NCBI GenBank assembly: GCA_964373695.1
Contig: CAYJVT010000004.1
Coordinates: 1 to 58,275 of the forward strand
Length of the DNA: 58,275 nucleotides
Direction of reading: 5' to 3'
DNA from: an uncultured archaeon
GTDB taxonomy: Archaea > Aenigmatarchaeota > Aenigmatarchaeia > GW2011-AR5
The notes under the pieces are model-generated. The model was not told the DNA's origin and searched no databases. It saw only the letters and a list, made by a program, of their open reading frames with translations. The translations under genes and the position numbers were made by a program. Positions within the stretch are counted from its first letter, which is position 1, and every line of letters begins with the position of its first letter. Positions 6,436 through 34,736 of the stretch are shown here, piece after piece.

Positions 6436-7362
6436 ATGCTCCTTGCCCTCGTGCTTCTCGCCGCAGGCTTCATTGTCCTGCTGAAGGCAAGCGACTACAC
6501 CGTGAGGAACTCGATATCACTCTCAAGGCAGAGCGGCATAAGCGAAATCATAATAGGGTTCGTCTTCGTAGCGATAGGAACTTCGATGCCCGAATTATCC
6601 ATAGCCATAATCTCGTCGCTTCACGGGAACGGCTTGCTGAGCTTCGGCAATCTCATAGGAGCCAATGTGATGCTGCTTACTCTCGTATTCGGCGTGATGG
6701 CGCTCATCGGCTTCAAGATACAGAAGGAGCGCCTCATGGAGATAAACCAGGCTGTAATCTTTGCCGCAATAATTGCAGTGTTCCTCATATACCTGATGAA
6801 GGTGGACATTGCATTCGGAATCTTTTCCATAATCCTGTTCTATGCGTTCCTGAAGAACATATACAGCGAGGAAAAGAAAATTGAAAGGAAAAGGCCCTCG
6901 AGAAACAGGAAAAAGACGGCAAAAATTCTCCTATACCTTCTTGCATCGATAGCCCTTGTCGTGGTCGGCGCCGAGATGATAACAAAGTCCGCCACGGAAA
7001 TCTCAGCCCTGCTTGGTCTTGGCAACACAGTGATAGGCGCAACCCTTCTTGCGCTGGGAACCACGATACCCGAATTCAGCGTCAACATAATGGCGCTGAG
7101 AAGGAAGGACATAAACCTGGCGATAGGCGACACCATCGGAAGCATAGTCACCAACATAACCCTGATACTTGGCGTAGCGGCCATAATAAACCCCATATCC
7201 ATAGACGCGTCCGGCAGGCTCGCCCTGGTGACGATGCTCATTGCGAGCGGCATCTTCCTCTACTTTGCGACGCACCTCAAGCTGAGAAAGGAGCAAGGGA
7301 TAATACTCATCGCCTCATACGCCATTTTCCTTTACCTCATGCTCTCCGGAACCGTGATATAA
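6436..7362 (+). CDS. Ca2+/cation antiporter (CaCA / NCX_Mj-like)
   Basis: About 10 TM segments with two alpha-repeat signatures, GTSMPELSIAIISS and GTTIPEFSVNIMA. Confidence 0.85.
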   Translation: MLLALVLLAAGFIVLLKASDYTVRNSISLSRQSGISEIIIGFVFVAIGTSMPELSIAIISSLHGNGLLSFGNLIGANVMLLTLVFGVMALIGFKIQKERLMEINQAVIFAAIIAVFLIYLMKVDIAFGIFSIILFYAFLKNIYSEEKKIERKRPSRNRKKTAKILLYLLASIALVVVGAEMITKSATEISALLGLGNTVIGATLLALGTTIPEFSVNIMALRRKDINLAIGDTIGSIVTNITLILGVAAIINPISIDASGRLALVTMLIASGIFLYFATHLKLRKEQGIILIASYAIFLYLMLSGTVI

Positions 7363-7372
7363 TCACGCAATT

Positions 7373-7468
7373 TATAGTGAAACAAGCAAATAAACAGGAT
7401 ATGATTTGCTTGTTTCACATATAGTGCCAGAGAAAAGTATATATTGAATCTTTTCTTTGAGCACTATA
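7373..7468 (+). mobile_element. MITE-like double-hairpin element, divergent copy 1 (intergenic)
   Basis: tatagtgaaacaagc...tgcttgtttcacatatagtgcc...gagcactata. All three arm segments are identical to copies 2 and 3, the loop sequences differ, and the element is flanked by TA/TA. Confidence 0.7.
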
Positions 7469-7471
7469 AAT
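7464..7471 (+). promoter_or_regulatory. candidate TATA box for tRNA-Cys, formed by the MITE terminus
   Basis: ctataaat ends 25 nt upstream of the tRNA 5' end (7496), the usual archaeal TATA-to-TSS spacing. Confidence 0.35.
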
Positions 7472-7495
7472 GTATTACAAACAATTTCTAACCAT

Positions 7496-7665
7496 GCTGG
7501 CGTGACAGAACGGCCATCTGCAAACGGAAGATGCAGACCGCAGATGTGACCGCCTGCAGACAAAGCCCTTTTCTTAAAAGAAAATGGCTTTGTATGTCCC
7601 AAAAGAAATTTTAGGGATATTATTGCAGCAAGCGGTATAACCCGGTTCAACTCCGGGCGCCAGCT
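7496..7665 (+). tRNA. tRNA-Cys(GCA) with a 71-nt canonical intron and a putative ~27-nt D-arm intron
   Basis: - Acceptor GCTGGCG(7496-7502)/CGCCAGC(7658-7664).
- T-arm CCCGG-TTCAACT-CCGGG (7641-7657).
- Anticodon stem ACCGC(7549-7553)/GCGGT(7632-7636).
- Loop CTGCAGA with anticodon GCA at 7556-7558.
- D-loop AACGGCCA.
- Removing 7560-7630 and 7517-7543 gives a 72-nt cloverleaf. Confidence 0.75.
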
Positions 7666-7669
7666 CTCG

Positions 7670-7981
7670 ATGAGGACGATAAAAGTAAGAGTAATCCCCA
7701 ACGCAAAAAGGAGTGGGATATAGTGCTCCAATGAAATAAAAAGGATATTATATCATTGGGCACTATATGTGAAACAAGCTATAATGTCGGTATTATTTTC
7801 TTGTTTCACTATAAAGGAAGAACCCGGCATGCTGAAAGTCAGGCTGAAGGCGAAGCCGGAAGACGGCAAGGCGAATGCCGAGCTGATAAGAGTCCTTTCG
7901 GCACATTTCGGCGCGGGAAAAAACGGCGTGAGGATTCTGAAAGGGCTGAAGTCGCGCGATAAAACAGTTCTGATAGAGTAA
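7670..7981 (+). pseudogene. DUF167 (YggU-like) gene interrupted by a MITE insertion
   Basis: 7670-7720 encodes MRTIKVRVIPNAKRSGI. 7814-7981 encodes KEEPGMLKVRLKAKPEDGKANAELIRVLSAHFG...SRDKTVLIE in the same frame. Joined, they match the DUF167 pattern (v.v.P.Ak...i....lkv...a.P.dGkAN..li..L). The intervening 93 nt starts with an in-frame TAG. Confidence 0.75.
7719..7813 (-). mobile_element. MITE-like double-hairpin element, copy 2 (inside DUF167 gene)
   Basis: 95 nt are the exact reverse complement of 45276-45370, checked base by base. It has TAGTG/CACTA termini and TA on both sides. Confidence 0.8.
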
Positions 7982-7993
7982 GACAGTGAAAAA

Positions 7994-8452
7994 TCACCGG
8001 CGAGCCTCGAAATCGCTTATTTTTCTGGCTCTTCTTCCATGACGCTCTTCGCCGGCGAATGGAGTCCCCAGCCACAATTCGACGGCTTTTATCGCGCTTT
8101 CTGCCTTGACGAAGCGGGCGCCTATGGACAGCACGTTCGCGTTATTGTGTTCCCGTGACAGGGAGACTATCTCATCCGGCCCGCCATAAAAGACTGCGGC
8201 CCTTATGCCCTTCACCTTGTTGGCGGCTATCGCTTCTCCCTGGCCGGAGCCGCCGAAAATTATGCCCCTGTTTCCAGGATGCAGTGCCACTTTTTCCGCC
8301 GCCGGGATTATAAAATCCGGATAATCGTCATCCTTGTCATAAGAATGAGGCCCTACGTCGATGAACTCGCGGCTTTTTTCCGCGAGATATCTTTTCACGG
8401 CCTCCTTCAGCTCATATCCGGCGTGGTCAGAAGCCATGTATATCATGTTCAT
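7994..8452 (-). CDS. rpiB: ribose-5-phosphate isomerase B
   Basis: SDHAGYELKE...GIIFGGSGQGEAIAANKVKGIRAA...REHNNANVLSIGARF matches the RpiB/LacAB family. Confidence 0.9.
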   Translation of the reverse strand: MNMIYMASDHAGYELKEAVKRYLAEKSREFIDVGPHSYDKDDDYPDFIIPAAEKVALHPGNRGIIFGGSGQGEAIAANKVKGIRAAVFYGGPDEIVSLSREHNNANVLSIGARFVKAESAIKAVELWLGTPFAGEERHGRRARKISDFEARR

Positions 8453-8482
8453 TCATCTCCTGTCAGTTTTTTTGACAACAAA

Positions 8483-8494
8483 AATCTTTATATA
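8483..8494 (+). promoter_or_regulatory. candidate BRE/TATA of giant gene 1 (AATCTTTATATA)
   Basis: AT-rich TATA-like box 43 nt upstream of the ATG at 8537. Nearly the same dodecamer precedes the other two giant genes. Confidence 0.4.
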
Positions 8495-8536
8495 CCGCTC
8501 CAATCCATAGTTTTCGTATTGAATTGGAGTGGTTTA

Positions 8537-11500
8537 ATGCGAAATATCGCAGTACTATTATCTATCCTGTTAATATTCTTTGCGTCCTCAATAACCTTTG
8601 CAGGTTATCAGGTCTACTCGGACGCCACGGTCGTGGCGGGCCAGCCGTTTTACGTGCGCGGCAATGTAAGCGGCACCAACCAGTACAATGTCAGCGTCAA
8701 CATAACAGGGAACAACGCAAACAATTCGTTTTCCGCAGGTGGCGGCTATTTCGAGGTTAATATTTCAGCCCCAGTGGTTGTCGGCGAATACAACGTCACC
8801 GTCCTGACAGGCAACGACACGTCCAACAACAAGACGATAAGGATATACGTCACGAACATCTCGTCTAATTTCTCCGCCATAACATTCACCAGAAACAAGC
8901 CGCCATTCTCGGCGGGATTGTCCTTCACGATAAACGTGACGATGAAGAACACCACAGGCAGCTTCCTGCACAACTACACTCCGCGGATGGAAATTTATTC
9001 TGCAAACGGCGTCAGGCAGACTTCATGGACGATAGCCAACATGTCAAACACCACAGACCACCGCGGCTGGGTCGAATACAACATAACCATACCTTCCGCA
9101 GTGGACGGCGATTTCGTAATCTCGGCCGACAAGGGCAACCTGCTGTCCTTCATAATCATAAAATCCAACTACGTGATGTCCGCAAGCGCCCAAACAAGCT
9201 CCAATGAGACGAAATTCGATTTCACACCGTCAAGCTCGTTCAACATAGTCGCAAAGATGAGGGACACGAGCGGCAACGCGATAGGGAACGCAATAAACAC
9301 CACGGCAAAAGTCATAAAACCTGACGGCACAGTCGAAACTGTGACGCTCGCAAATGACACTTCCCTTTTCGGCCAGTACAAAGGCAGCTACACTCTTGGA
9401 AGCACGACAGGGCAGTATACCATAAAGGCTTCTGGAATCATCGGAACAACGACAGTGGAGTCTTCCACTACCGTGAATGTGCAGCAGATAAAGGCAATAT
9501 TTGACACGCAGAAGGAATTTTTCAGGGAATGGGGTGATTCGTCGGCTTTCGTTCCTGGAGGCACAGTCGGGCTCATAGTCCTGGCGACAAACCTCAGCGA
9601 TTCGTCAATATTCGCGGGATCGACAAGGGCGTCGCCTTCCGGAGGAACTGTCAACTGCACCAGGCTGGGCGACACGCTGCAGGTATCTTACCTGAACGGC
9701 ACCAACTATGTCATAAGCGGCACCATCACCAATGATTCCTCAGGCACTTATTTTGGCCAGAGCGTATGCAGGGTACAGTTCGCAGGTCCTACGGAGACCG
9801 GCAATTATAAAATAACGGCAAACGCTTCGGTCGGCACAGGCAGCCCGTCGGCGATCGCCACAGGGTACTTTGCTGTCCAGAGGTTTGTGCTGAAGCCCAC
9901 GGCAGTGTCCTCGCTCGGCGGCTCATTCGACTTCATGACCATGCTGCATCCCGGCGAGAACGCCACTTTTGACATCGGCGCTTACGACCTTGCAAACAAC
10001 AGTGAAGTGGCGGGCCTCAACATAACAAACATCACTGTCACGAAGATAATACCTCTCGAGTTCAACGCAGGCGCAAACGACATACTGTCTGGCAGCGCCC
10101 AGCGTTCCGATGTATTCAATTTGACTAATATTACTGCAGGCTCGAACCTCAAGAACCCTGCGGTAACGGTCGGCCTGCCGGTCAACAAGACCGGGCCTTA
10201 CCTGATTGAGATGCAGGCGGTAATAGACACCGCTGAAGGGGACCAGATTATCACCGGAAGAGGATTCTACATATCCAAGTACATCATGGGCTTCCTTTCA
10301 TCCTCCGGCAGGACTGATGCCGCGTTCGGCGGGCCGTCCGGAGGCTTCGGCGGATTCTCTTCATGCAGCGAAGGCACAGAGAAATTCTCCGGCAACGTGA
10401 GGGAGTTGAAAACCAATAGCGCGCCCAAGGATCCGGTTTCATTCAACAACATACTCCAGGCAAGGGAGGAATTATCAGGAAGAGACATCTCGTCGTGCCT
10501 GACCATGTCGACAAATTCCTCCGACAGCAGCGGACAGGTGACAGTTCCTGTAACGTTCAACAGGACAAAGGCCGGCTGCACAAGCCTCTCTGGATTCCAT
10601 TTCATGCTCATCAACGTGACCTACAAGGGAAGGGAGGACCAGATACCTGCAGGCTTCATGTGCAGGCAGTTCCAGTTCTTCCCGCAGGGCAAGGATTCGA
10701 ACAATGCCTCCGTATGGAGGGTTGATTCCAAAGGCTCGGTCAACTTCACTTTGGACAACACGAATCCGGTGAGAAGGCTGAATGACAGCGGCACCATGCA
10801 GAATGGAACAGTCACCATTATCCGCGCCTTCAACTTCAATCCTGGCATCGGGATGCAAGTTCTCACTCTGAACAGCAGTGCCAACCTGACGAGAAATCTG
10901 TCAAATAGTGTCTTCAGCCTTGTCGTGACGCCAAGCACGTTCTCGCGCGCAACATACCCGAACGGCTTCATATCTATAACCTGGAAATTCACGCCTAACG
11001 GGAGCGAGAGCACCGGCAGCGATACGACTGAGACGGGCTTCCAGGTATCCGCATTTGATGCATACGTCGTGAACACGGAAAGGCCGACAACAGGAGGCGC
11101 CTGTGGCGCTGGCGTCACGTGCATGACAAACGGCAGTGCCGGAGGCTTCGGCGGCTTCGGCTCCACGTTCAGTGCCGGAGAAGACATAATTATATGGCTC
11201 CGTGCCTCGACAAACGTCAGCAAGACGAACAACACCAACGGCGGCACGAACCTCACGGGAGGAACCCTTGTGGGCGTGCAGAGCACCAGCGGCTTCACTG
11301 CAAAGGTGGGGCTTCCTTGGGAAGGCAAGCTCAAGCCTGTCACCATAAACAACGCATCGCTCGTCACGGATGACTGGAACGGCTCTTATGACAATCAATA
11401 CCCAAGATGGGGCGCAGAGCTGTGGAGGCTCAATGTCACCATACCAACGACACTCAAGAAAGGCTTCCAGGCGCTCCAGATAGAGGTCAACAGCTCCGCA

Positions 11501-13438
11501 AACGGCAATTCAAGCGAGAAGGTGACGACAGACGTATGGTTCAGCATCGTCAAGTACAGCGTTGTCATCGGGCAGGAGGAAGGCATGCTGTTCGAGAGCC
11601 ACTTCAAGAGATGGGGTAATTATTCCACTGGCATATCAGGTACGGGAGGAAGCACAATACCAGGTGAACCCATTGACAACACAACAATATTCAACGCAGG
11701 CTGGAATCTCACTTACATAAACACCACCTACAATCTTAGGTCCAAGTCAGATGCGGTATGCTTCAGGAATGAGCTCAATGTGACGAGATGGTCGCAGAGT
11801 TCCGCAGAAATATCATACAACAGGAGCCTTGGCATGAGAATACTGATACTGGATAACGGCACTGCAGGCGTCTACGACACCGTAATTATCAATGCAACCT
11901 ATCCGGGTGTGGATAACAACCGTACATATGTAAATAACATTACTATCCTGAGAACGGACGGGCTCAGGAATATTACAGGCAGCAATGGCGTCACATACAA
12001 CGTAAGCAGAAACATTACGTCAGACCTTTACCTGTGGCAGATACTTGACTGCAGCTACGTGAAATGGGTGAATGGTTCATACGTTCCGACCAACGTCGGC
12101 TCATGGGCAGGGCAATACCAGAAAGGCGTGAATTTCACCCTGCCTTACATAATCAAGAGGAGCAGTTCGGCCGGGCCTGCAATTTCCGGCGCGACTGTCA
12201 GCGTCAATGCGGTCATAAGGCAGAATGATGCTTCCAGTACAGGCGGCGCTTCAACAGGAGGATACGGCTTCTCGAAGAAACTTGTAGCACCTGAATACCA
12301 GTCAGATATGGCTGTTACAGGCTCCGGCGGTCTGGCATTCGTGCCTGTGAACATCTCAGGCTCAACAGGCAGCTTCATGATATTCTGGAGAGTGAATGAG
12401 ACAAACGGTCAGGAGGACATAGCATCGTTCCAGAGCGAGGGATTCGGCGGCTATGGTGGTGGTGGAGGAGGAGGCGACATAGGCACGCAAGTCCAGATAA
12501 GAGCATTCGACACGTATGCCAGCAGACTTCCAAGAGTCAATTCCAGCCATGCGGCAATCCCGATAAAGCTTAGGAACCTGACAGCGCCTTTGGACGCTGC
12601 CTTATCTATATATGGGATAACTGCTGGCGGCGCAGGCGACAGCGTATACAACGTTACATGGAACGAGGGATTAGGCGGCCAGCTCACGGAGAACAGCGCC
12701 CTAGACAACTTCACGATACTGTTCAACTTTTCGCTTGCTCAGTACGGCCAGAATGCCACGATAATGGGCAAGAACACCGCCAACCTGGCAGGCGCGTCTG
12801 TCGACACGTCGACATTCACATATACGATAGACGGCAAATCACTTTCGGTGGGCGCTGTCCGCAACACGGATGGGCAGAACCTGACAATAGCATTTTACGA
12901 GGACTCCAGCAGCCAAGTATATTACCCGATAATAAACCTGACGCAGAACATTTCAGTGAGGGTGTGCGCCCAGACTTATACGAAGCCGTCGAAGCCCATA
13001 CTGAATGCCAACGTATACATTTATGCGGAATCATGGGGCACTTCAGGATTCAGCATGACGCCAACCACAACCCCGATGCAATGGCACGACCCGATAAACA
13101 ACACACCTTACCTGTTCGGCCCGATATCAGGCATTTCAATGCCTGTAGCGAATGCCACTGTAGGGCCGAAGGGATGCGTGGCTATCAACGTAAGGAACCC
13201 ACTGAACTGGACATCATACACTTCATACAGCATCAAGGCCAAGGTAAAGCGAACAAGCGCGGCTGACAATGAAACCGATGTTGAGGATACGTATGTTGAT
13301 TACGTATGGAGGTCGCCGCAGTGCTCCAATGGCATTGATGACGACGGAGACGGCAACAGGGATTACCTCAGCTGGGGCGGAGGCGTGTCGGCTGATACCC
13401 AGTGCAGCAGCTATTCGGACGATGACGAAGCTGCATAA
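8537..13438 (+). CDS. giant secreted, heavily N-glycosylation-sequon-rich surface protein 1 (no membrane anchor)
   Basis: The ORF is open from 8279, but the ATG at 8537 gives the signal peptide MRNIAVLLSILLIFFASSITFAG. I counted 16 N-x-S/T sequons in the first ~165 mature residues. There are four Gly/Phe-rich loops. The C-terminus is QCSNGIDDDGDGNRDY...CSSYSDDDEAA, with no TM segment. Confidence 0.85.
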   Translation: MRNIAVLLSILLIFFASSITFAGYQVYSDATVVAGQPFYVRGNVSGTNQYNVSVNITGNNANNSFSAGGGYFEVNISAPVVVGEYNVTVLTGNDTSNNKTIRIYVTNISSNFSAITFTRNKPPFSAGLSFTINVTMKNTTGSFLHNYTPRMEIYSANGVRQTSWTIANMSNTTDHRGWVEYNITIPSAVDGDFVISADKGNLLSFIIIKSNYVMSASAQTSSNETKFDFTPSSSFNIVAKMRDTSGNAIGNAINTTAKVIKPDGTVETVTLANDTSLFGQYKGSYTLGSTTGQYTIKASGIIGTTTVESSTTVNVQQIKAIFDTQKEFFREWGDSSAFVPGGTVGLIVLATNLSDSSIFAGSTRASPSGGTVNCTRLGDTLQVSYLNGTNYVISGTITNDSSGTYFGQSVCRVQFAGPTETGNYKITANASVGTGSPSAIATGYFAVQRFVLKPTAVSSLGGSFDFMTMLHPGENATFDIGAYDLANNSEVAGLNITNITVTKIIPLEFNAGANDILSGSAQRSDVFNLTNITAGSNLKNPAVTVGLPVNKTGPYLIEMQAVIDTAEGDQIITGRGFYISKYIMGFLSSSGRTDAAFGGPSGGFGGFSSCSEGTEKFSGNVRELKTNSAPKDPVSFNNILQAREELSGRDISSCLTMSTNSSDSSGQVTVPVTFNRTKAGCTSLSGFHFMLINVTYKGREDQIPAGFMCRQFQFFPQGKDSNNASVWRVDSKGSVNFTLDNTNPVRRLNDSGTMQNGTVTIIRAFNFNPGIGMQVLTLNSSANLTRNLSNSVFSLVVTPSTFSRATYPNGFISITWKFTPNGSESTGSDTTETGFQVSAFDAYVVNTERPTTGGACGAGVTCMTNGSAGGFGGFGSTFSAGEDIIIWLRASTNVSKTNNTNGGTNLTGGTLVGVQSTSGFTAKVGLPWEGKLKPVTINNASLVTDDWNGSYDNQYPRWGAELWRLNVTIPTTLKKGFQALQIEVNSSANGNSSEKVTTDVWFSIVKYSVVIGQEEGMLFESHFKRWGNYSTGISGTGGSTIPGEPIDNTTIFNAGWNLTYINTTYNLRSKSDAVCFRNELNVTRWSQSSAEISYNRSLGMRILILDNGTAGVYDTVIINATYPGVDNNRTYVNNITILRTDGLRNITGSNGVTYNVSRNITSDLYLWQILDCSYVKWVNGSYVPTNVGSWAGQYQKGVNFTLPYIIKRSSSAGPAISGATVSVNAVIRQNDASSTGGASTGGYGFSKKLVAPEYQSDMAVTGSGGLAFVPVNISGSTGSFMIFWRVNETNGQEDIASFQSEGFGGYGGGGGGGDIGTQVQIRAFDTYASRLPRVNSSHAAIPIKLRNLTAPLDAALSIYGITAGGAGDSVYNVTWNEGLGGQLTENSALDNFTILFNFSLAQYGQNATIMGKNTANLAGASVDTSTFTYTIDGKSLSVGAVRNTDGQNLTIAFYEDSSSQVYYPIINLTQNISVRVCAQTYTKPSKPILNANVYIYAESWGTSGFSMTPTTTPMQWHDPINNTPYLFGPISGISMPVANATVGPKGCVAINVRNPLNWTSYTSYSIKAKVKRTSAADNETDVEDTYVDYVWRSPQCSNGIDDDGDGNRDYLSWGGGVSADTQCSSYSDDDEAA

Positions 13439-13471: not shown

Positions 13472-15025
13472 ATGAACAAGGAAACGGAGAAGAACAGAAT
13501 GAACAAAAACATAATCTTAATGGCACTGGCAGTTGTTTTGCTGTCGTCAATAAGCATGGCGCAGAGCAATTCGGTGTCAAGCGTAACCACCACAAGTTCT
13601 GCCGTATCGGCAACCACCGGAACGAATGTCGTCATAACGGCAACTGCTACGGCGTCAGGCGGCGACGTGTCAAACACGCAGCTCCAGCTCATAAAAGTGA
13701 GCGGCAACGGCTCCGGAAGCTGCACCGGAAGCAGTGATTTCTCCGTTTCAGATCCAGGCTCTCCCTATACCTACACAACAACGGTAAGCACGAGCGGCAC
13801 CACGAAAAGCTTCACATTTACCGTGGGCAACTGCGGCACTTACACTTATCATGTGACGGCGACTTGGTCAGGAGGCTCCAAATCATCCTCCGATGCGACA
13901 ATAGAGTTCATAAACCCAACCTCAATGACTGTTACTGCAACACCAACGACAAGACAGGTCAATTTGTCCCAGACATTCTCGGCCAGCATGGATATCCAGA
14001 ATTCACAGGACAGCGATGTCACCACGTCTTACACCCTGAACCTTCCTACAGAAATAACAAGAAGCTCCGGAGATGATGCCAGCAGCACATCGTTCACTAT
14101 CACTGCAGGCACCACGCAGACGCTTACCTGGACGCTCCAACACAGCACATGCTTCACAGGCGACAAAAGCGTGACACTTGACCTTGGCAGCCAGACAAGC
14201 GCCGCAACCTTGACTGTGACGGGCAATTCATCATGCGCTACAACAAGTAGCACCTCTTCGTCATCAAGCAGTTCAGGCGGCGGAGGCGGAAGCTCTACAA
14301 GCTCTCAGGTGAAGGCAATAGTTGCCAAGCAGGCGGCTCCGAACACGATAAAGGCGACGTTTTCGGCAATAGCGAAGGACAAGGAAGCAGTCGTTGAGGT
14401 TCCAAGTGATGTCGATACAGGGCTGACAAAAATACTTTTCACGGCAGCGAAGGCGCTTACAAGCGCCCAGATAACAGTCGCGAAGCTTGATTCCGCGCCG
14501 GCATCAATAAGTGCTCCCGTGTCTGCGGAGCCGGCGGTGAAAGTCTACAAATACATAGAAATATCCCATAACATCGCCGAGCCTGAAATAGCGACAGCAA
14601 CCATACAGTTCGACATTGACAAGTCATGGCTTGATGCCAATAATATTGATCCAGCGAAGGTCGTGCTTAACAGGTACAGCTCCGACAAATGGGCGAAGCT
14701 GATAACGAGCAAGACGGCAGAAACATCGGACAAGGTATCATACAGCGCCGCGACGCCCGGCTTCTCGGTGTTCGCTATAAGCGGCGAGGTGAAGACTGAG
14801 GCTGTCCCTGAATCCGCTGCTGTTCCAGGTGCCGGTGCTGGAGAAGAAGCGGGCCAGGAGGAAAGCGCCGCAGGAACAGCGCCTCCTTCGGGCCAAGTTG
14901 ACAGCGGCGTGCTCACAGGCGTTGCAGCAGTGCTTGTCGCAATAATAGTGATAGTATTCGTCTTCATGAAAAAAGCCCATAAGCCGCAGTCAAGAGGATA
15001 CTCTTACGGTTTAAGAAAGAAATAA
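13472..15025 (+). CDS. type-I membrane protein with PGF-pre-PGF-like domain (anchor paralog 1)
   Basis: - Signal peptide.
- Two Cys-pair Ig/CARDB-like regions.
- Ser/Gly linker.
- KVYKYIEISHNI...FDIDKSWLDANNIDPAKVVLNRYSSDKWAKL...ATPGFSVFAISG, the PGF-pre-PGF pattern.
- Acidic linker, TM helix and basic tail.
The start could instead be 13499. Confidence 0.8.
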   Translation: MNKETEKNRMNKNIILMALAVVLLSSISMAQSNSVSSVTTTSSAVSATTGTNVVITATATASGGDVSNTQLQLIKVSGNGSGSCTGSSDFSVSDPGSPYTYTTTVSTSGTTKSFTFTVGNCGTYTYHVTATWSGGSKSSSDATIEFINPTSMTVTATPTTRQVNLSQTFSASMDIQNSQDSDVTTSYTLNLPTEITRSSGDDASSTSFTITAGTTQTLTWTLQHSTCFTGDKSVTLDLGSQTSAATLTVTGNSSCATTSSTSSSSSSSGGGGGSSTSSQVKAIVAKQAAPNTIKATFSAIAKDKEAVVEVPSDVDTGLTKILFTAAKALTSAQITVAKLDSAPASISAPVSAEPAVKVYKYIEISHNIAEPEIATATIQFDIDKSWLDANNIDPAKVVLNRYSSDKWAKLITSKTAETSDKVSYSAATPGFSVFAISGEVKTEAVPESAAVPGAGAGEEAGQEESAAGTAPPSGQVDSGVLTGVAAVLVAIIVIVFVFMKKAHKPQSRGYSYGLRKK

Positions 15026-15078
15026 GTTAGTGTATTATGATATAAAAAGCTTTCTGCTATCCTCTAAAAGGTGTGAAT

Positions 15079-15318
15079 ATGGAGAATGAAATACAGCTCA
15101 TAAAGAACTTTGAAATGGACAGTATGTGGTTGAAGACTCATATAGATTCCATACGAAGCAAATTTAAGAACTCGTTTGTGGCAGTAAAAGACAAGAAAGT
15201 AATACTTTCAGGCAAAGATTTAGACGCATTAATAGAAGAACTCAAAAAAAATGGAGTAGAGACGGATTCTGTAGTTATTGAGTATGTACCAGAGAAAGAT
15301 ATACGAATAATTTACTAA
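15079..15318 (+). CDS. small DUF5678-like protein (partner of retropepsin-like protease)
   Basis: The 79-aa ORF ...KFKNSFVAVKDKKVILSGKDLDALIEELKKNG... resembles small archaeal proteins usually found next to retropepsin-like proteases. The context is AT-rich. Confidence 0.5.
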   Translation: MENEIQLIKNFEMDSMWLKTHIDSIRSKFKNSFVAVKDKKVILSGKDLDALIEELKKNGVETDSVVIEYVPEKDIRIIY

Positions 15319-15377
15319 AATTATATGTAAGATTTATCAAATCAATTTTATACATGCTTAAATAGTAGTTACAATGA

Positions 15378-15845
15378 ATGCTCTTTATGAAAGTCCCGTT
15401 GAAGTGGGTAAAGGATGGCATATACTTACATGCCAGAATTATGGCAACTCATGTTACAGGACAGCTTAGATTTCTCATTGATACTGGAAGTGAAGTAAGT
15501 TTTGTAGGAGGAATAGACGCCAGAAGACTTGGAATAAAATTAAATAAGACTTCTAATCCAGAAGATTGTGTTTATTTGGGAAGAACACGATTTAGACTTA
15601 TTGATATGAGAAATGTAAGACTATCTTTTATTGGAGAAGAAAATGGTCAGGAAAAGATAAAGGCTATCAACGTTCCAGAACTAAAGGTAACACCAGATGT
15701 TCTTCAGGATAAGGGAATAAAAGATTCTCCAAATATACTAGGTTTAGATTTTCTTGTATTAAACAAACTCAGAATAGTTGTTGATGGTTCTAATAATACG
15801 GCTTGGTTTGAAACACCTCTATTTAGTAAAACCCCTGAAAGATGA
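15378..15845 (+). CDS. retropepsin-like (clan AA) aspartic protease
   Basis: LRFLIDTGSEVSFV contains the D-T-G-S catalytic motif in a protein of about 150 aa. ILGLDFL lies near the C-terminus, as in the retropepsin fold. Confidence 0.65.
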   Translation: MLFMKVPLKWVKDGIYLHARIMATHVTGQLRFLIDTGSEVSFVGGIDARRLGIKLNKTSNPEDCVYLGRTRFRLIDMRNVRLSFIGEENGQEKIKAINVPELKVTPDVLQDKGIKDSPNILGLDFLVLNKLRIVVDGSNNTAWFETPLFSKTPER

Positions 15846-16041
15846 CTAGATGAATTATTTCATATTTTTCTCTAAATATTTATAGTATTTTCAAGAAATC
15901 TAAAACCTAACGCATATAAAAAACATATATATACTGTCCCGACCCATAGTCCTTCTATTGGGTGGTCAGATGTCAAAGAGAAAATGGATAAAAATAAGGA
16001 TGGGCTAGAAAGGCCGGATATTTTTATTCTCCCATTATATG

Positions 16042-20896: not shown

Positions 20897-23800
20897 ATGA
20901 GAAACGGGACAATTTTTCTATGTGTGATAGCGTATGTTTTGCTATTCCTACCGTTCTCTTATGCCGCAACGTTCTATGATGTGCACGCACTGACGTCAAA
21001 ATCCGCGTACAACATAAACGAAACCGTGGTGCTTTACGGATATGTGCTCAACATAACGTCCAATTCCACGGCGAACACAACATCTTACCTCGGAGAAAAT
21101 TCAACCGTTTCAGTCGTAATCAAGAACTCCACGAATTCCACCACAGCCAGCTACACGCTCTATGCCAATTTAAACGGCTCTTTTTACTCCAATAGCACGC
21201 TTTACAACACCAATGTAACAATTCTCGCCCCGAACTCCACCGGCAGCTACAGGATCAACGTCACCTATACCGACCCTTCGAATGCGACTTGGTCATCCGT
21301 TCTTCCCATAATTGTTGTCAGCAAGCAGGTGGATGAAATCACGATAAGCGCGAACAAGGCGGCTTTTTCCTCCTCTGAATCCATGCAGCTTACGATAAGG
21401 GCGGTCCAGCTCATCGGGGACAGCGCTCTGGGAGTGAACAACACTGCGATAAACGGCACCATCAGGAGATACAACGACAGCTCAATCCAGTCCAGATTCA
21501 ACTGCACCACATCCAGTGATGGAAGGTGCTACGTGACGCTGACCGCGCCATCTTCAGTGGAAAAATATTTCATTGAGGTGAACAACTATCTGGGCTACAT
21601 GAGCTTCAGCGTCGTTTCGTTCGACATAGACATCTATGTCAGGGACAGCACCGGAACCAGCTATAGAAATGTCTTCAGGACAGGCGAATCCGGCCTCATC
21701 GAGGTGAGAATCAGCTCCGCAAGCCCGTCCGGCACTTACAATGTCACGGGAAGCATAGCGGATTCCTCGGGCGCAGGAAAGCAGAACATGACATCCATGC
21801 TGCTCAACGTCTCGAACGGATTCGTAAACTCGCTTTCCTTCACTGTAAACAACGTCTTTGCAGCGGGATCGGTATACACGGCGAATGCAACAGTCAGCGA
21901 CGGGACCAACACCGTCACAAAAACCATCATGTTTGAAATAAGGGACTGGACATTCAATTTCGCGAAAAGGAAGACGGATTCGGGCTTTGAATACGGCTAC
22001 ACCGTATTCCCGGACACACGCATGTTTTTGCAGGTGTTCCCGACGGAGCGCGAGAACAGCACCGTGATAAAGAACCTCACCGATGCGAACATAAGCATTT
22101 CACTCAAAAATACGCTCGGCATACAGCTTTCCAATTCGAGTGTCGTATATAATGCAAGCTGCGGCACCATCGACTGCTACGACTTCAACCTGACGGCGCC
22201 GTCTGCCATAGGCGACTACACGATTTCGGTTCTGCTGAACTACAGCAGCGTATCAATGGCACAGGAAAGGACCATCAAGGTGACGAATACGCTGGCGTCA
22301 ATATTCTCGGCGGATTCTGAAGGAGCCATAAAGGAGCTTTTCAGCCCCACCGAATATGTTTACATAAAAGTTTCCGCAAAGAACAAGACATCGAATATAA
22401 GCATATCGGATGTTGACGTCGGCACGATGATTTACGAGAACGGCACCGTAACAAGCTATTCCCAGGCATCCGGAAACACGACAAACATCACTGACAGCAC
22501 ATATGAATGGATGTGGAACTCGTCATCATCGCTTCTCCGAATGGACCCGCCGAAGACAGGCGGGATATACATGCTGGAAATGTACGCCAACAACAGGTCT
22601 GCATATGCCACGACAAAATTCGCCATAAATCCCTATGACGTATGCGCACAGGCAAAAGCCACTTCCGACACGAACACAGTGGATTACTGGTGGCAGTTCA
22701 GGACAACGGACACCATATATTTCCAGATAACGATAAACGAGGCCCAGAACCCGTCGGGAAAAGTTCTTAATACATCAGCGGCCCAGAACGGCACATACGG
22801 GATAGGCAGTGCATGCTCCTTCGACACGACGCGGAAGCAGGCAGTGACCAACGCGAGCATCTCAATATCAAAGGTCCTCAATACTGACAGCAACAGGGAA
22901 GAGTCGCTGAACACGACATCGTCAATATGCCAGTCGACTGACAGCAGCGGCGGCTATCTCTGCACTGCCCAGGCCGATGATAACAAATGGGACGCCGGGA
23001 GGCATGCCGTATTCTTCAATGTCGTGGACAACAACAAAAACACGACAGACAAAGGCGTTGGCTTCTTCGAGACGAGAGCTTTCTACATATACGGCTACCC
23101 TAATACTTGGTACAACAAAAATACCGACAACATAACCTTCAGCGTAAAGCTGTATGAGGCCGGAAGCGGCTGGTGGAGCAGCGGCACAGGTCTGTCAGGA
23201 ACGATTGCCGTAGAAAAAATCAACAACTACGGCTCGTTCGGTGAGTGGATATGGCCTCCCGTGCAGTATCCTTATAACATCACGGGCCTGAATGCCACGA
23301 CTGTTACAAACGGCGCCGGCACGCTCAGTGTCACGGTGAACAGGACAAAAGACGGGACATGGAAATCCGGCAACTACGCGGTTGTTGTGAAGGCGGTCGT
23401 CAACGGGGAGACGGACTACGGCGAAATATGGTTCACCGTAAGAAAGTGGGACGCCTATGCATCGCCTGTCGAGGTTTCGGGAACCAATTATATTTACAAG
23501 AGCTCGTTCAACAGCAGGGAAAACATAAGCCTTTACGTCCGGCTCTCGGAGGCGGGAGGATACTCCGATACAGGAGGAACCTATATCGGAAATGTCAGCA
23601 TCAGGGTGAAATCAATCCAGGACTATTCAAAATGGCCGGCATCCGTGATATCCACCACTTCCTACAACAGCACAACAGCAACTGTAAACACGTCAAGCCC
23701 GTGGTACTCGACATCAGGCGTTGCGCAGAACTATCCGGGTCATGTTGTCAACATAACAAAGCTCGGCTCGTGGGACTCCGGCTACTACAGCGTTGTCCTT

Positions 23801-26509
23801 GACATAAACGGGACAGAGACGGGATACGGATGGTTCAGCATCATAAACTTCCAGACCAACACATTCCCCACCAACAGCACAGGCTCCAACAACTATTATT
23901 TCACAGGCACCACGCCCATATACTTCAACGTCACCACCACAAAGAACTGGAAAGGCTCATACGCAGCCGCCGATTACATAAACACGACAGTGGAAGACGG
24001 ATTTGTGAGGACGTGGCAGTCATCAACAAACTCTCCCATCGAGTTCAACTATCCCGAAAATTTCAACATCACGCCACTTAATGTGTCGAACGGCAGCGCA
24101 ATTATCAGCATAAACAAGAGCACTTCATGGCCTTCGGGATGGTATTACGGCGAGCTGACGCTCAAGGACCCAACCAACCTCACCGGAAAAGGCTGGATAT
24201 ATTTCTCAGTGAAGCCGTTCAGAATCAGCACGTCCGGCAACAGCCTGATTTCAACCACTAGAAACCTCACGCTGAACTTGTCCATACTGGAGCCGGAGTA
24301 CTCGCAGGGCACCAGGAGATTTGCGAATTATACAGTGGAAAAGATAACAGAAACCATATGGTCATATACGGGCCGGACGTTCAGGCAGTACAACTTCTCG
24401 CCCACAACCAACTTCACCCAGAACATATCCCTTAATGTCAGCCCGATAAACGGCAGGTGGTCGCCGGGATGGAGGTATATCAGCGTGCTCGTGAAGGACA
24501 ACAACACGAACTCCACCGAGGAGCAGTGGTACTCGTTCCAAGCGCTTCCTTTCCAGACAAGCGTTTCAAGGACGTCGGGGGCCTCCATAGGGCCCAACAC
24601 AAACGTGACGGTCAACGTGACGCTGACTGACCCGATAACAGGGGCCCGGACAACCGGAAACGTTTCGTCCGTGTACTACTGGGGATGGCCTTCGAAGACG
24701 CAGTACAGGTTTGCCGTAGGCACATGTGATTCCCAAATCAATGGCAGCTGCATGATAAACGGAAGCGCCACGCTCAAGATATTGCCGCCGACAGGCGGAT
24801 GGGAAGAAGGATACAGGTATATGTACTTCAACTTCATTGACAGCCTTGACGCCTCGACCACCGTGGAGACGTGGAACAGCATTTACTTCGAGGTCAAGCA
24901 GCCGCTTTCCGGCTACATGTACGCCGTTGACAAAAATGCCAACTATGTCTACAGGTATTCAAACCAGGACAACGTTACGATGTACCTCTACAGCCTGCAG
25001 AACCTCTCAGGCAGCGCAATAAGCGTGAACGTCACAAATGTCCAGTATGCGCAGTCGGAGCCCAACTGCTGGAGCGATTCGTGCAGAAATTACCAGAATG
25101 TTCCATGGTTTGTCGTCACTTACAGCAGCGCTGCATTTTCAGCATATTCCGGCAGCAACATCACCGGGACCGGCTATGTAAGGCTCAACAAGACCGGCAT
25201 CTGGTCAAACGGGGAATATTATATCAGGATAAGTGTCTCGTCCGGCGGCGACACGGCGACCATAAAGAACGGATATTTCAGGGTGGTCGACAACCAGATA
25301 CCTCATGTCACCATCACAAGCCCTGCAGTGGATTCCACCATAACAGGAGCAACACTTGACGTTGCGGCGACGTCCTCAGAGAATGCGCAATGCTGGACGA
25401 CCATATTTGACTACGGAAACTTTTACAGAACCAACTGCGGAAGCCAGGATGGAAATTATTCAGTCCACTGCAACAGCACAAGATACAGCAATGCAACCAC
25501 ATTATATTATGACACCATTTACCCCGGATTCAGGACATATTTAACATCCACCATCACATCGCATGAAAGCAGAACTTTCGGGACGTCAGGCGGCACATCG
25601 CATTCATTTTCAGTGCCTACAACCTACATGGCCAACCAGCATTACGCACTTCAGGTATGGTGTTACGACTCCGACTGGAACTACGGGTACAACACGACAG
25701 TCATCCTTGTGAACAGCACCATTCCTCTTGGTACCGGAATATACGTGCCGGCCAATACGACATATGTTTCGACCAACATAAACCTGAATTATACCGTCAA
25801 CGGCACAAACGTAGACAGATGCTATTACAGGCTCAACGGCGGCTCCATTACGCTGCTGAACAAATGCACCAATGTAAATGAAACCGTTCCCATAGTCGCA
25901 TCGGAGGGCCTGAATAACATAAGGGTTTACGTTAACAACACGGCTGGAGATTCAAATTCAACTATAGTATATTTCAGCGTCAGGAACAACACGGTACCAA
26001 CAAGCGGATTGCTCGTGGCAAGCAACACAACATTCTCGAGGGGAACCTACAACCTCTCGACAGGAATCAACATAACGGCATCCAACATAACCCTTGACTG
26101 CAACCTTGCAGTTCTCCGCGGCAACGGGACAGGGATAGGCATCAATGCGATAGGCTTCAGCGGCCTGAATATAACGAACTGCGACATACTGAACTTCACC
26201 TACGGCATGAGGCTGCAGGGAACCAACCTGACCATCCAGAACAACAGCATCTACAACAACACCGCGGGGATAAACATTACGTCAAACGCCATCGCCAATG
26301 CGACATCGGTCAACATAACACTGAACAACATCTTCAACAACACGCTCTTCAACTTCGTGAACAACCAGAGCGGCAACATATCGATCCCAAGGAACTGGTG
26401 GGGCACATCCAACGTCAGTCTCATGAACGGGACGATATACGACTTTTACAACAACAGCAACTTCGGCCTCGCCAACTTCACCACAATACTTTCGGGGCGG
26501 GTGAGATGA
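20897..26509 (+). CDS. giant secreted sequon-rich surface protein 2 with C-terminal parallel beta-helix (NosD/PbH1-like) domain
   Basis: Signal peptide MRNGTIFLCVIAYVLLFLPFSYAA, with very dense N-x-S/T throughout. The C-terminal ITLDCN..LRGNGTGIGINA..GLNITNCDILNFTYGMRLQGTNLTIQNNSIYNNTAGINITS...NWWG is typical of right-handed beta-helix repeats. No TM anchor. Confidence 0.85.
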   Translation: MRNGTIFLCVIAYVLLFLPFSYAATFYDVHALTSKSAYNINETVVLYGYVLNITSNSTANTTSYLGENSTVSVVIKNSTNSTTASYTLYANLNGSFYSNSTLYNTNVTILAPNSTGSYRINVTYTDPSNATWSSVLPIIVVSKQVDEITISANKAAFSSSESMQLTIRAVQLIGDSALGVNNTAINGTIRRYNDSSIQSRFNCTTSSDGRCYVTLTAPSSVEKYFIEVNNYLGYMSFSVVSFDIDIYVRDSTGTSYRNVFRTGESGLIEVRISSASPSGTYNVTGSIADSSGAGKQNMTSMLLNVSNGFVNSLSFTVNNVFAAGSVYTANATVSDGTNTVTKTIMFEIRDWTFNFAKRKTDSGFEYGYTVFPDTRMFLQVFPTERENSTVIKNLTDANISISLKNTLGIQLSNSSVVYNASCGTIDCYDFNLTAPSAIGDYTISVLLNYSSVSMAQERTIKVTNTLASIFSADSEGAIKELFSPTEYVYIKVSAKNKTSNISISDVDVGTMIYENGTVTSYSQASGNTTNITDSTYEWMWNSSSSLLRMDPPKTGGIYMLEMYANNRSAYATTKFAINPYDVCAQAKATSDTNTVDYWWQFRTTDTIYFQITINEAQNPSGKVLNTSAAQNGTYGIGSACSFDTTRKQAVTNASISISKVLNTDSNREESLNTTSSICQSTDSSGGYLCTAQADDNKWDAGRHAVFFNVVDNNKNTTDKGVGFFETRAFYIYGYPNTWYNKNTDNITFSVKLYEAGSGWWSSGTGLSGTIAVEKINNYGSFGEWIWPPVQYPYNITGLNATTVTNGAGTLSVTVNRTKDGTWKSGNYAVVVKAVVNGETDYGEIWFTVRKWDAYASPVEVSGTNYIYKSSFNSRENISLYVRLSEAGGYSDTGGTYIGNVSIRVKSIQDYSKWPASVISTTSYNSTTATVNTSSPWYSTSGVAQNYPGHVVNITKLGSWDSGYYSVVLDINGTETGYGWFSIINFQTNTFPTNSTGSNNYYFTGTTPIYFNVTTTKNWKGSYAAADYINTTVEDGFVRTWQSSTNSPIEFNYPENFNITPLNVSNGSAIISINKSTSWPSGWYYGELTLKDPTNLTGKGWIYFSVKPFRISTSGNSLISTTRNLTLNLSILEPEYSQGTRRFANYTVEKITETIWSYTGRTFRQYNFSPTTNFTQNISLNVSPINGRWSPGWRYISVLVKDNNTNSTEEQWYSFQALPFQTSVSRTSGASIGPNTNVTVNVTLTDPITGARTTGNVSSVYYWGWPSKTQYRFAVGTCDSQINGSCMINGSATLKILPPTGGWEEGYRYMYFNFIDSLDASTTVETWNSIYFEVKQPLSGYMYAVDKNANYVYRYSNQDNVTMYLYSLQNLSGSAISVNVTNVQYAQSEPNCWSDSCRNYQNVPWFVVTYSSAAFSAYSGSNITGTGYVRLNKTGIWSNGEYYIRISVSSGGDTATIKNGYFRVVDNQIPHVTITSPAVDSTITGATLDVAATSSENAQCWTTIFDYGNFYRTNCGSQDGNYSVHCNSTRYSNATTLYYDTIYPGFRTYLTSTITSHESRTFGTSGGTSHSFSVPTTYMANQHYALQVWCYDSDWNYGYNTTVILVNSTIPLGTGIYVPANTTYVSTNINLNYTVNGTNVDRCYYRLNGGSITLLNKCTNVNETVPIVASEGLNNIRVYVNNTAGDSNSTIVYFSVRNNTVPTSGLLVASNTTFSRGTYNLSTGINITASNITLDCNLAVLRGNGTGIGINAIGFSGLNITNCDILNFTYGMRLQGTNLTIQNNSIYNNTAGINITSNAIANATSVNITLNNIFNNTLFNFVNNQSGNISIPRNWWGTSNVSLMNGTIYDFYNNSNFGLANFTTILSGRVR

Positions 26510-26513
26510 TAGT

Positions 26514-28004
26514 ATGAAATTACTGATAACAATCCTCTTTGCAGCCGCATTGGCCGCCGCTGGCTTTGCATCACTCAGCGTCGAAAGCTTCACGTGCAAC
26601 AGCCAGTCTGGAACCGTTGTCGCAGAAACCGGCGCCACCCTCGTATGCCAGGCGTCGGTAAAGAACGGAGACAGCCAGAATTCCGCGGCTTTCAATTCCG
26701 CAAAACTCCTTGTCAGCGGCGTGTGGACGGACGCGACCTCCTACACAGGCGGCGGATTCGACACGACGATAAGCGCCGGAGGCTCCACAACGGCCACCTT
26801 CACCGGAATAAGCGCTGTTTCGCCCGGCCCCACAAACAAGTTCCAGGCGATTCTCCTTGACGACGCCACGGATACGTTTGTCGCCGACACCACGGTTAAT
26901 GTTCTTGCCGTGAAATCCATCACAGCAGCCTCCACGCTGTCATCAGCGACAGAAGGCCAGCAGTTCAGGGTTGACTCGACAGTAATAGTCGGCGGAGACC
27001 CGTCATCTGCCACCCTTTCCGTCTCCCTTTCCGGATGCAGCCTTGCCTCGGGCGAGACCGCCACCAAAAGCATCGGGGACGTGTCAAACAACGACGTTAT
27101 TTCAAGGTCGTGGCAGATGATTCAGGGAAGCAGCAACTGTCAGATTACAGTGACAGGCTCCCTGATAGCGTCTTCCGTCACTGTTCAGAGAACTACGACA
27201 GCGACAGTCACGAATCCAAATGTGGGCAGTTCTGGGAGTAGCTCGTCATCATCAAGCAGCAGCTCAGGCGGGGGCGGAGGGGGCGCTGCTTCTGCACAGA
27301 CAAAAGCTACAATAGTGAAGGAGTCACCAAACTCAATAAAGGCGACATTCAGCTCGATAGCCAAGGACAAGGAAGCTGTGATAGAAATCCCGGACGATGT
27401 GGACGCAGGCGTTACAAAGCTTACGTTCACAGCCTCCAGGGCCATAGGAAGTTCCTATGTAAACGTGAGAAGCCTTGATTCAATGCCCCCGTCCGTAACG
27501 AAAGAAGTCGAGGCTGCAAAGACGTACAAGTACATAGAAATATTGCATAACATCTCGGAAGGCGCTATATCATCAGCCAAGCTGTATTTTGACGTGGAAA
27601 AATCATGGCTTAGCGCAAATGACATAGACGCGGACAAGATTCATCTTAACAGATACAACGAAGGGAAGTGGGACAGGCTTTCCACAAGCAGGACAAATGA
27701 AACCTCTGAAAAGTTTTCATACAGCGCTTTATCACCCGGCTTCTCGGTGTTCGCTATAAGCGGCGAGGTGAAAACATCTTTGGCGGAGCAGACTTCGGGC
27801 CAGGCTGAGAAGCCTTCAACAGCGAAACAGCCCGGTACACAGCAGCCAGCGAGCGAAATAATAAAGGTTGTTTCTGATTATGGCATATACATACTTATAG
27901 TTGTCATAGCTGTCGTGCTGGTTCTGGGCTACTTCTATTACCACGGACATCGGCACCTGAAAAAAGCCGTCATGGTAAAGAAGCTCCGCGTCAAGTCGGC
28001 TTAA
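26514..28004 (+). CDS. type-I membrane protein with PGF-pre-PGF-like domain (anchor paralog 2)
   Basis: Same architecture as 13472..15025. It shares SIAKDKEAV(V/I)E(V/I)P, YKYIEI.HNI, KSWL.AN.ID, LNRY..KW and PGFSVFAISGEVKT, followed by a linker and a TM helix. Confidence 0.8.
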   Translation: MKLLITILFAAALAAAGFASLSVESFTCNSQSGTVVAETGATLVCQASVKNGDSQNSAAFNSAKLLVSGVWTDATSYTGGGFDTTISAGGSTTATFTGISAVSPGPTNKFQAILLDDATDTFVADTTVNVLAVKSITAASTLSSATEGQQFRVDSTVIVGGDPSSATLSVSLSGCSLASGETATKSIGDVSNNDVISRSWQMIQGSSNCQITVTGSLIASSVTVQRTTTATVTNPNVGSSGSSSSSSSSSSGGGGGGAASAQTKATIVKESPNSIKATFSSIAKDKEAVIEIPDDVDAGVTKLTFTASRAIGSSYVNVRSLDSMPPSVTKEVEAAKTYKYIEILHNISEGAISSAKLYFDVEKSWLSANDIDADKIHLNRYNEGKWDRLSTSRTNETSEKFSYSALSPGFSVFAISGEVKTSLAEQTSGQAEKPSTAKQPGTQQPASEIIKVVSDYGIYILIVVIAVVLVLGYFYYHGHRHLKKAVMVKKLRVKSA

Positions 28005-34640: not shown

Positions 34641-34736
34641 GATTGGAATTTTCATTATTGAAGAGGGGTGTCAGACATCTTTGGGATTTTTTCGTGCGCA
34701 TTGTCGGCCGCGGGCAACGACATAAGATACAACGGG

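Follow-up and report, generated by a model that had tools for sequence, protein, structure and literature searches.

Three copies of the element in the window

The window analysed in this study, a stretch of 58,275 nucleotides covering contig CAYJVT010000004.1 (GenBank assembly GCA_964373695.1) from an uncultured archaeon, contained three copies of a short non-coding element that folds into two adjacent hairpins and carries TA at both boundaries. The genes around them include housekeeping functions such as the proteasome alpha subunit, SRP54, an intein-containing FtsY, cysteinyl-tRNA synthetase (CysRS), the RNase P protein Rpp21, S19e, eIF6, prefoldin, exosome subunits and PCNA. Close homologues named Candidatus Aenigmarchaeota, together with syntenic loci, assign the window to Candidatus Aenigmatarchaeota, the same phylum as the relatives of the element described below. 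One copy is intergenic, lying 10 nt past the stop of a Na/Ca-exchanger gene and 27 nt ahead of a tRNA-Cys gene, and each of the other two splits a protein-coding open reading frame (ORF), as follows:

7373-7468, plus strand: copy 1, 96 nt including both TA (TA at 7373-7374 and 7467-7468)
~7377-7423 and ~7420-7468, plus strand: hairpins H1 and H2 of copy 1, respectively
7719-7813, minus strand: copy 2, 95 nt, inside a DUF167 (YggU) gene (TA at 7719-7720 and 7812-7813)
45276-45370, plus strand: copy 3, 95 nt, inside a minus-strand transglutaminase-like/TPR gene
7670-7720, plus strand: N-terminal DUF167 fragment, 17 codons (MRTIKVRVIPNAKRSGI), with its ATG at 7670 and running into copy 2
7814-7981, plus strand: C-terminal DUF167 fragment, 55 codons plus stop, the frame resuming at 7814
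45369-45718, minus strand: N-terminal transglutaminase-like/TPR fragment; the present ORF enters copy 3 and stops at 45350
44642-45275, minus strand: C-terminal (TPR) fragment of the same gene

Over 95 nt, copy 2 is the exact reverse complement of copy 3, so that the two elements are identical; an inverted-repeat search returned them as a 98-nt pair at 99%, because two extra flanking bases match fortuitously. Copy 1 contains TATAGTGAAACAAG, GCTTGTTTCACATATAGTGCC and AGCACTATA exactly as they stand in copies 2 and 3. The 20-nt core occurs three times in the window against 0.01 occurrences expected, and the 14-nt arm three times against 0.19. The unit itself is about 91 nt long and reads 5'-TAGTG...CACTA-3', and a central CACA-TA-TAGTG connects its two AT-rich foldbacks, H1 and H2. 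Folded as DNA, every window copy gives this pair of neighbouring hairpins, with energies between -23 and -27 kcal/mol and a z of about -9.7 relative to shuffled sequences on either strand (the copies span about -9 to -10). A covariance-model search of the whole window yielded no fourth copy. These coordinates, the 95-nt identity and the two-hairpin folds had already been given in the original prediction, made from the sequence of this window, and all were reproduced. Its description of invariant arms and freely varying loops holds among the three window copies but not across the family, where it is the stems that vary, with semi-conserved apical loops; part of what it had read as the loops of copy 1 in fact belongs to the upper stem, in which the copies differ by compensating changes. 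The AGTGGG preceding both identical copies, formerly taken as a target preference or an extension of the element, turned out to be host coding sequence (Ser-Gly codons) and is offset by one base between the two sites (AGTGGGA/TATAGTG versus AGTGGG/TATAGTG).

Both identical copies interrupt genes, a point that the original prediction had missed. Deleting 7721-7813 (93 nt, that is, the element and one TA) restores a 72-aa DUF167 ORF, which matches the Pfam profile over positions 3-76 with 84 bits, compared with positions 28-76 and 64 bits for the downstream fragment alone; intact 72-aa orthologues are present in three related loci (L032, L036 and L037). The same 93-nt removal at copy 3 fuses the transglutaminase-like and TPR ORFs into one of 327 aa, for which P0002 (65% identity) and P0003 (34%) are unsplit homologues, both at 98% coverage. 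The contig of P0002 (L030) keeps synteny with the window to the left and right of copy 3 and has GGG TAT GAG at the position of GGGTA(TAGTG...CACTA)TAT in the window, and thus represents an empty site with a single TA. For copy 1, relatives were found via orthologues of the adjoining Na/Ca exchanger, which gave three informative loci. The site is empty, again with a single TA, in L036 and L037 (gcgattTAaatgtatt), while the same TA holds a 147-nt four-hairpin variant in L032/L033 (L032 10938-11084), whose flanks are identical to those of L036 over the region compared. The DUF167 gene of a further related locus (L038) has been hit independently, at another codon and in the opposite orientation, by a 97-nt copy, and its reading frame is regained only by taking out 95 nt (the element length minus 2, as is the case for the two split genes of the window).

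The single-TA empty sites and the restored ORFs thus bear out the earlier proposal of an element resembling a miniature inverted-repeat transposable element (MITE) that duplicates a TA, and its claim of recent mobility is likewise supported. Copies 2 and 3 jumped into genes very recently; copy 1 is older and occupies an intergenic TATA-like box upstream of the tRNA-Cys gene. Empty-site alleles within the population, which had also been suggested as a check, were not found in four further read sets of this organism, drawn from two run series, in which all junctions were filled; in the corresponding Logan assemblies (L042-L047, four runs), short-read contigs end 27-38 nt inside the element copies. 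Since all four read sets are filled and no empty allele appeared, the gene-disrupting insertions look fixed, which we interpret as a loss of genes that a reduced genome tolerates. The genic copies carry stop codons in the frames actually read (in the L038 copy, and by direct reading in copies 2 and 3).

The tRNA-Cys(GCA) gene downstream of copy 1 is a probable one at 7496-7665 on the plus strand, with two introns, and was overlooked by both ARAGORN, which found no tRNA, and Rfam. One intron of ~28 nt lies in the D-loop (~7517-7544), and the other, of 71 nt, lies at the canonical position 37/38 (7560-7630) and shows a bulge-helix-bulge motif, with a 4-bp helix between two 3-nt bulges. Both the T-arm and the acceptor stem (GCTGGCG/CGCCAGC) are intact, and ARAGORN calls the tRNA once the D-loop insert is deleted. 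By eye, the tRNA-Cys of L038 reads as intron-less, and those of L032 and L036 have a shorter D-loop insert of ~17 nt.

Relatives in Aenigmatarchaeota and conservation of the fold

The exact 20-mer core had no match in species-representative genomes, and in metagenomes it returned one genuine copy (L003). Its absence from the representative genomes made a degenerate pattern of the architecture necessary, in which only termini and centre were fixed: TATAGTG N25-50 CACATATAGTG N25-50 CACTATA. This pattern matched 27 times in 26 loci from nine archaeal metagenome-assembled genomes (MAGs), seven of them labelled Ca. Aenigmatarchaeota and two labelled archaeon only, and all 27 matches form double hairpins. 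A covariance model recovered about 11 extra diverged copies inside the same loci, or approximately one extra per 15 kb, a density like that of the window (3 in 58 kb). Altogether, about 44 copies are known from at least nine Aenigmatarchaeota MAGs. The further copies outside the window for which the original prediction had proposed to search are thus plentiful in the relatives. No real copy was found in viral contigs, in which the sole match to the pattern fell in phage coding sequence, has no hairpin and is attributable to chance. Two copies within the same MAG (L008 and L023) differ at 1 of 97 nt, indicating recent activity elsewhere in the family.

The family copies are 83-105 nt long, without periodicity, or 147-152 nt when they contain a nested module. 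Their ends read TATAGTG...CACTATA, a terminal inverted repeat of 7 nt, or 8 in some copies; these terminal bases were preset by the search pattern, and in the copies found without it they are largely kept, with occasional substitutions. The target flanks of 40 copies favour T/G at -2, A/T at -1, A/T at +1 and A/C at +2, which describes a roughly palindromic, AT-rich target, K-W-TA-W-M. A literature search found no published link between Aenigmatarchaeota and MITEs, and as far as could be found the family has not been described before. Taken together, the findings show a non-coding unit that enters TA sites in both orientations, duplicates the TA and was recently active in several lineages.

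Conservation of the fold was measured on 30 aligned copies. Stem cells are paired in 98% of cases, 10 of the 25 pairs show changes on both sides, and compensated stem cells number 91 compared with 27.6 in shuffles; when the pairing partner was shifted by 1-3 columns as a control, only 32-49% were paired. Across the family, the stems therefore vary by compensating changes, while the termini, the centre and a bulged A, found on the 3' side of both H1 and H2, are conserved; the apical loops, approximately AATCCCGAYATG for H1 and TAATATCCTGAAT for H2, are semi-conserved. Such strong covariation agrees with the selection on, or maintenance of, structure that had been suggested from the window alone. 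Stem mismatches are strand-symmetric, with seven G:T and six A:C (G:U-capable on the given and on the other strand, respectively), and orientation relative to the neighbouring genes is close to random (20:16 on one side and 16:21 on the other), as it is between nearby copies within loci (8 co-oriented and 8 opposed). Because the mismatches are symmetric and the orientation is random, the palindromy is a DNA-level property rather than the sign of an RNA gene.

Uncompensated changes occur in single copies within subfamilies (L008/L023, L016/L018, and the L032 copy/L028), and compensation is seen between subfamilies only, so that hairpin integrity probably matters when further copies are made and not for a role at the individual site. 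The hairpins accordingly appear, from this pattern of substitutions, to be needed for mobility; alternatively, repair within a foldback could be a source of covariation that involves no selection.

Several relatives carry a smaller, ~50-nt double-hairpin module, also bounded by TA (CAAGCAG..GAA..CTGCTG TA CAGCAG..TTC..CTGCTTG). Its insertion point is the central TATA of the main element, at the first TA in L021 and at the second TA in L024, with the TA duplicated each time. Compared with the main element it is GC-richer and has triloops, and it adjoins other hairpin types too. It appears to be a separate MITE family of the same architecture. Its sites are:

L021, 2033-2082: small module in the first central TA
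L024, 4345-4398, minus strand: small module in the second central TA
L028 and L032: small module at the centres of the long variants
L027, 5159-5260: further small-module site

Three other loci deserve mention. In L014 (5112-5207, minus strand), the copy sits in the TA of the TAA stop of the upstream gene, lengthens that ORF by six codons (YSETKK) and leaves 3 nt to the ATG of the next gene. In the H2 of the L032 copy (10938-11084), the 5' arm is L028-like and the 3' arm L007-like, and the two pair poorly; these mixed arms suggest recombination or template switching between copies. In a metagenome contig without convincing ORFs (L001, 626-664), the H1 arms known from the window form a perfect palindrome that lacks a loop, ATAGTGAAACAAGC followed directly by GCTTGTTTCACATATAGTGC.

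Mode of movement and alternative explanations

We consider it probable that the copies constitute a family of non-autonomous DNA transposons (MITEs) specific to the Aenigmatarchaeota of the DPANN archaea, inserting at TA and presumably moved in trans by an enzyme of the IS630/Tc1 type. The element enters the TA of a K-W-TA-W-M target and duplicates it. It would be mobilised by a transposase encoded elsewhere, for which an IS630/Tc1-mariner-type DDE transposase is the likely candidate: TA is duplicated, the target is palindromic, no strand bias is seen and the ends read TA/TAGTG. The ends of Tc1, TA/CAGTG, may be set beside the latter. What speaks for the IS630/Tc1 assignment of the original prediction is confined to the duplicated TA, a target that is AT-rich and near-palindromic, and TAGTG at the ends; no cognate transposase was found.

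Three observations weigh against the transposon interpretation. Firstly, searches of the window and of ~300 kb of related loci revealed neither a transposase gene nor an autonomous partner. Pfam profiles, run on 40 window ORFs and on 10 ORFs adjacent to the element in the related loci, detected no transposase, in line with the earlier statement that the window lacks one. In the related loci, tblastn with IS608 TnpA, E. coli RAYT and Tc1 queries was negative as well, although this is a weak test; for IS608 TnpA and RAYT nothing scored below E = 0.5. A scan of the loci for solitary hairpins bracketing a gene also found none. Secondly, the apparent fixation of insertions that split genes is unexplained if they are harmful. 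Thirdly, a terminal repeat of only 7-8 nt, the covariation of the stems, the bulged A and the semi-conserved loops are not predicted by a plain terminal-inverted-repeat model.

A variant reading, which we regard as unlikely, would make the element no passive MITE but a hairpin-dependent mobile unit that homes to the TA of a TATA box and rebuilds an outward-facing TATA box at both junctions, its enzyme reading the foldback structure instead of a long terminal repeat. Both junctions do read CACTATA followed by the flank, that is, the terminal TA plus the duplicated TA, and the empty site ahead of the tRNA-Cys is TATA-like, ATTTAAAT (gATTTAAATg), ~30 nt before the tRNA, with two different variants of the element occupying the same TA. 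In L007, a divergent gene pair begins at distances of 5 and 23 nt from either end of the element, and in L009 the start codon of L7Ae lies 13 nt from the H1 end, with TTTATATA as the H1 loop on that strand. Over the family, outward gene starts show a weak clustering at 20-27 nt from the element ends, and several fall within 30 nt. Within the transposon interpretation itself, too, the element may, tentatively, supply or regenerate outward TATA boxes, which could let it survive in promoter regions. On the variant reading, it could sit between housekeeping genes and their promoters, or serve as a portable promoter.

The main rival, which is itself improbable, is single-stranded transposition by an HUH (Y1) enzyme, as in the palindrome elements of IS200/IS605 or in REP/RAYT. 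Here, H1 and H2 would be the left and right ends, the left TA would be the target and the right TA the last two bases of the element itself, with no duplication involved, and sequence alone cannot separate these two arrangements. The two similar hairpins with conserved feet, a 3'-side bulged A and semi-conserved loops would suit such an enzyme, as would stems that change only with compensation, which fits reading of shape rather than of sequence, and the extra sequence between H1 and H2 in some variants. IS200/IS605 is, moreover, reported as the most widespread insertion sequence family in archaea (PMC13343696). On the other hand, neighbouring copies are opposed as often as co-oriented (8:8), with copies 1 and 2 opposed only 250 nt apart, and the target is short and roughly palindromic instead of an asymmetric, left-only 4-5-mer: the flank to the left of the TA is weakly biased, and this bias is mirrored on the right. 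In addition, the feet stand at the extreme ends, with no space for offset cleavage or guide sequences of the IS608 type, and the tblastn search, a weak negative, detected no Y1 transposase.

Small structured RNA genes, or non-mobile cis-regulatory RNA hairpins acting in transcript stabilisation or termination, could account for the strong covariation in both helices, the conserved loops and a fold z of about -9 to -10. They would not account for the strand-symmetric mismatches (7 versus 6) and the equal folding of both strands, for the random orientation relative to genes and the insertions inside coding genes, or for presence and absence among related genomes with duplication of TA; the empty sites in particular largely refute them. 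Rfam gave 0 matches at gathering score in the window, and a permissive run produced only sub-threshold hairpin noise at 7300-7900. We therefore rate this explanation as very improbable.

As improbable as the RNA explanation is the idea that the genic copies are harmless intervening sequences, removed by bulge-helix-bulge splicing, ribosomal bypass or precise DNA excision, so that the genes still work. It would make sense of the seemingly fixed genic insertions in the four read sets, of the two independent hits on DUF167 and of restored ORFs that show no further damage. The codon preceding the element is repeated at its end in two cases out of three, and in the third the two are synonymous Tyr codons (UAU/UAC), but this seeming match of take-off and landing codons for ribosomal bypass is automatic given TA + T...A + TA in one frame and in another needs only a preceding A. 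RNA splicing is unlikely because inspection of the copy 2 and 3 junctions for two 3-nt bulges and a 4-bp helix revealed no bulge-helix-bulge motif and because the two DUF167 insertions lie in opposite orientations. The stop codons in the frames read also speak against this idea, as does the intergenic position of most copies, which is expected if genic ones are purged.

Two further candidates were rejected. Selection for a length divisible by three in the genic copies is contradicted by L038, which needs removal of 95 nt, and by the aperiodic lengths (83-105 nt). A large mobile island or invertible segment between copies 2 and 3 is ruled out, as the intervening 37 kb are housekeeping (CysRS, eIF6, prefoldin, FtsY and SRP54) and gene order at both ends is as in L032 and L030.

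Some other features of the window were recorded in passing. The FtsY-type signal recognition particle GTPase (31286-34174, plus strand) contains an intein with a LAGLIDADG homing-endonuclease domain, at the same place as the low-GC stretch of 32-33 kb (GC 0.37). Three giant ORFs on the plus strand (8279-13438, 20897-26509 and 34668-41522) would encode 1719, 1870 and 2284 aa, respectively. The first two show faint macroglobulin MG2-like matches, and each of them is followed by a ~500-aa paralogue without a Pfam match (13472-15025 and 26514-28004), the two paralogues sharing 59% identity over 164 aa. GC falls sharply to 0.32 in 15001-16000, around a 155-aa ORF (15378-15845) that has a retropepsin-like match at sub-threshold level only.

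Consequences for the host and comparison with known systems

DPANN archaea have very small genomes, in which few mobile elements have been recognised. An active MITE at about one copy per 15-20 kb erodes genes in such a genome, here DUF167 twice independently and a conserved transglutaminase-TPR gene once, and the element can serve as a marker of strain-level differences between close relatives. It has practical effects as well: it fragments short-read assemblies, and gene callers annotate each split gene as separate, truncated ORFs. The covariation of its stems together with strand symmetry makes it a clear example of structural maintenance in DNA itself, and this, combined with the Correia-like termini discussed below, offers a handle for finding the mover of such orphan elements.

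The nearest likeness is to the Correia elements (CREE/NEMIS) of Neisseria, which are likewise small (~100-155 bp), non-coding, AT-rich, hairpin-forming and TA-duplicating, and have the same terminal heptamer, TA/TAGTG...CACTA/TA. To our knowledge, no cognate transposase is known for them. On the unlikely variant reading given above, the mover of the archaeal element could be the same kind of enzyme as that of these orphan elements, with which it shares the TA/TAGTG ends. The Correia repeat begins tatagtggattaac, and its elements are present in many copies per genome, inactivate genes and carry promoters at their ends (PMC5039591). The Correia elements are bacterial and confined to Neisseria, and have one 26-bp terminal inverted repeat (TATAGTGGATTAACAAAAA...) around a core, whereas the Aenigmatarchaeota element consists of two side-by-side foldbacks, whose ends are common over 7-8 nt and whose stems covary. 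With an archaeal host and sequences unrelated past the first 7 nt, it is not a member of the Correia family.

More broadly, mobile repeats of <200 bp that end in TA and duplicate TA are an established class with terminal inverted repeats, mostly intergenic and forming stable stem-loops, of which RUP has been linked to IS630-Spn1 (PMC2229807); MITEEc1 is classed under IS630 (PMC11602168). The present element resembles RUP/IS630-Spn1 and ERIC/MITEEc1 in its size (<200 bp), its inverted-repeat ends with 5'-TA-3' and the duplication of its target. RUP differs in that a cognate IS630 with matching ends exists, and none was found for the Aenigmatarchaeota element; both RUP and ERIC form one long hairpin by pairing of the 5' and 3' ends, instead of two foldbacks. 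Among archaea, SM1 of Sulfolobus is reportedly a MITE of ~80 bp (Redder et al., 2001, cited in PMC2229807), probably mobilised by an IS630-family transposase (ISC1048). SM1 belongs to another phylum and has a known autonomous partner.

Two other systems share parts of the architecture. With the REP/BIME-RAYT and IS200/IS605 palindromes, the element has in common a conserved foot, a conserved structure, and clusters and mosaics of units; these palindromes, however, move without target duplication, strand-specifically and in dependence on a Y1 HUH enzyme, in contrast to the random orientation and palindromic TA seen here. The CIR repeats of Caulobacter and Brucella are likewise double stem-loops with TA termini (PMC2229807), but are without terminal inverted repeats, demonstrated target duplication or intragenic copies, and they carry a GANTC methylation motif. 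The Aenigmatarchaeota element is thus a new family of a familiar kind of element, in which the covarying architecture of two foldbacks is unusual.

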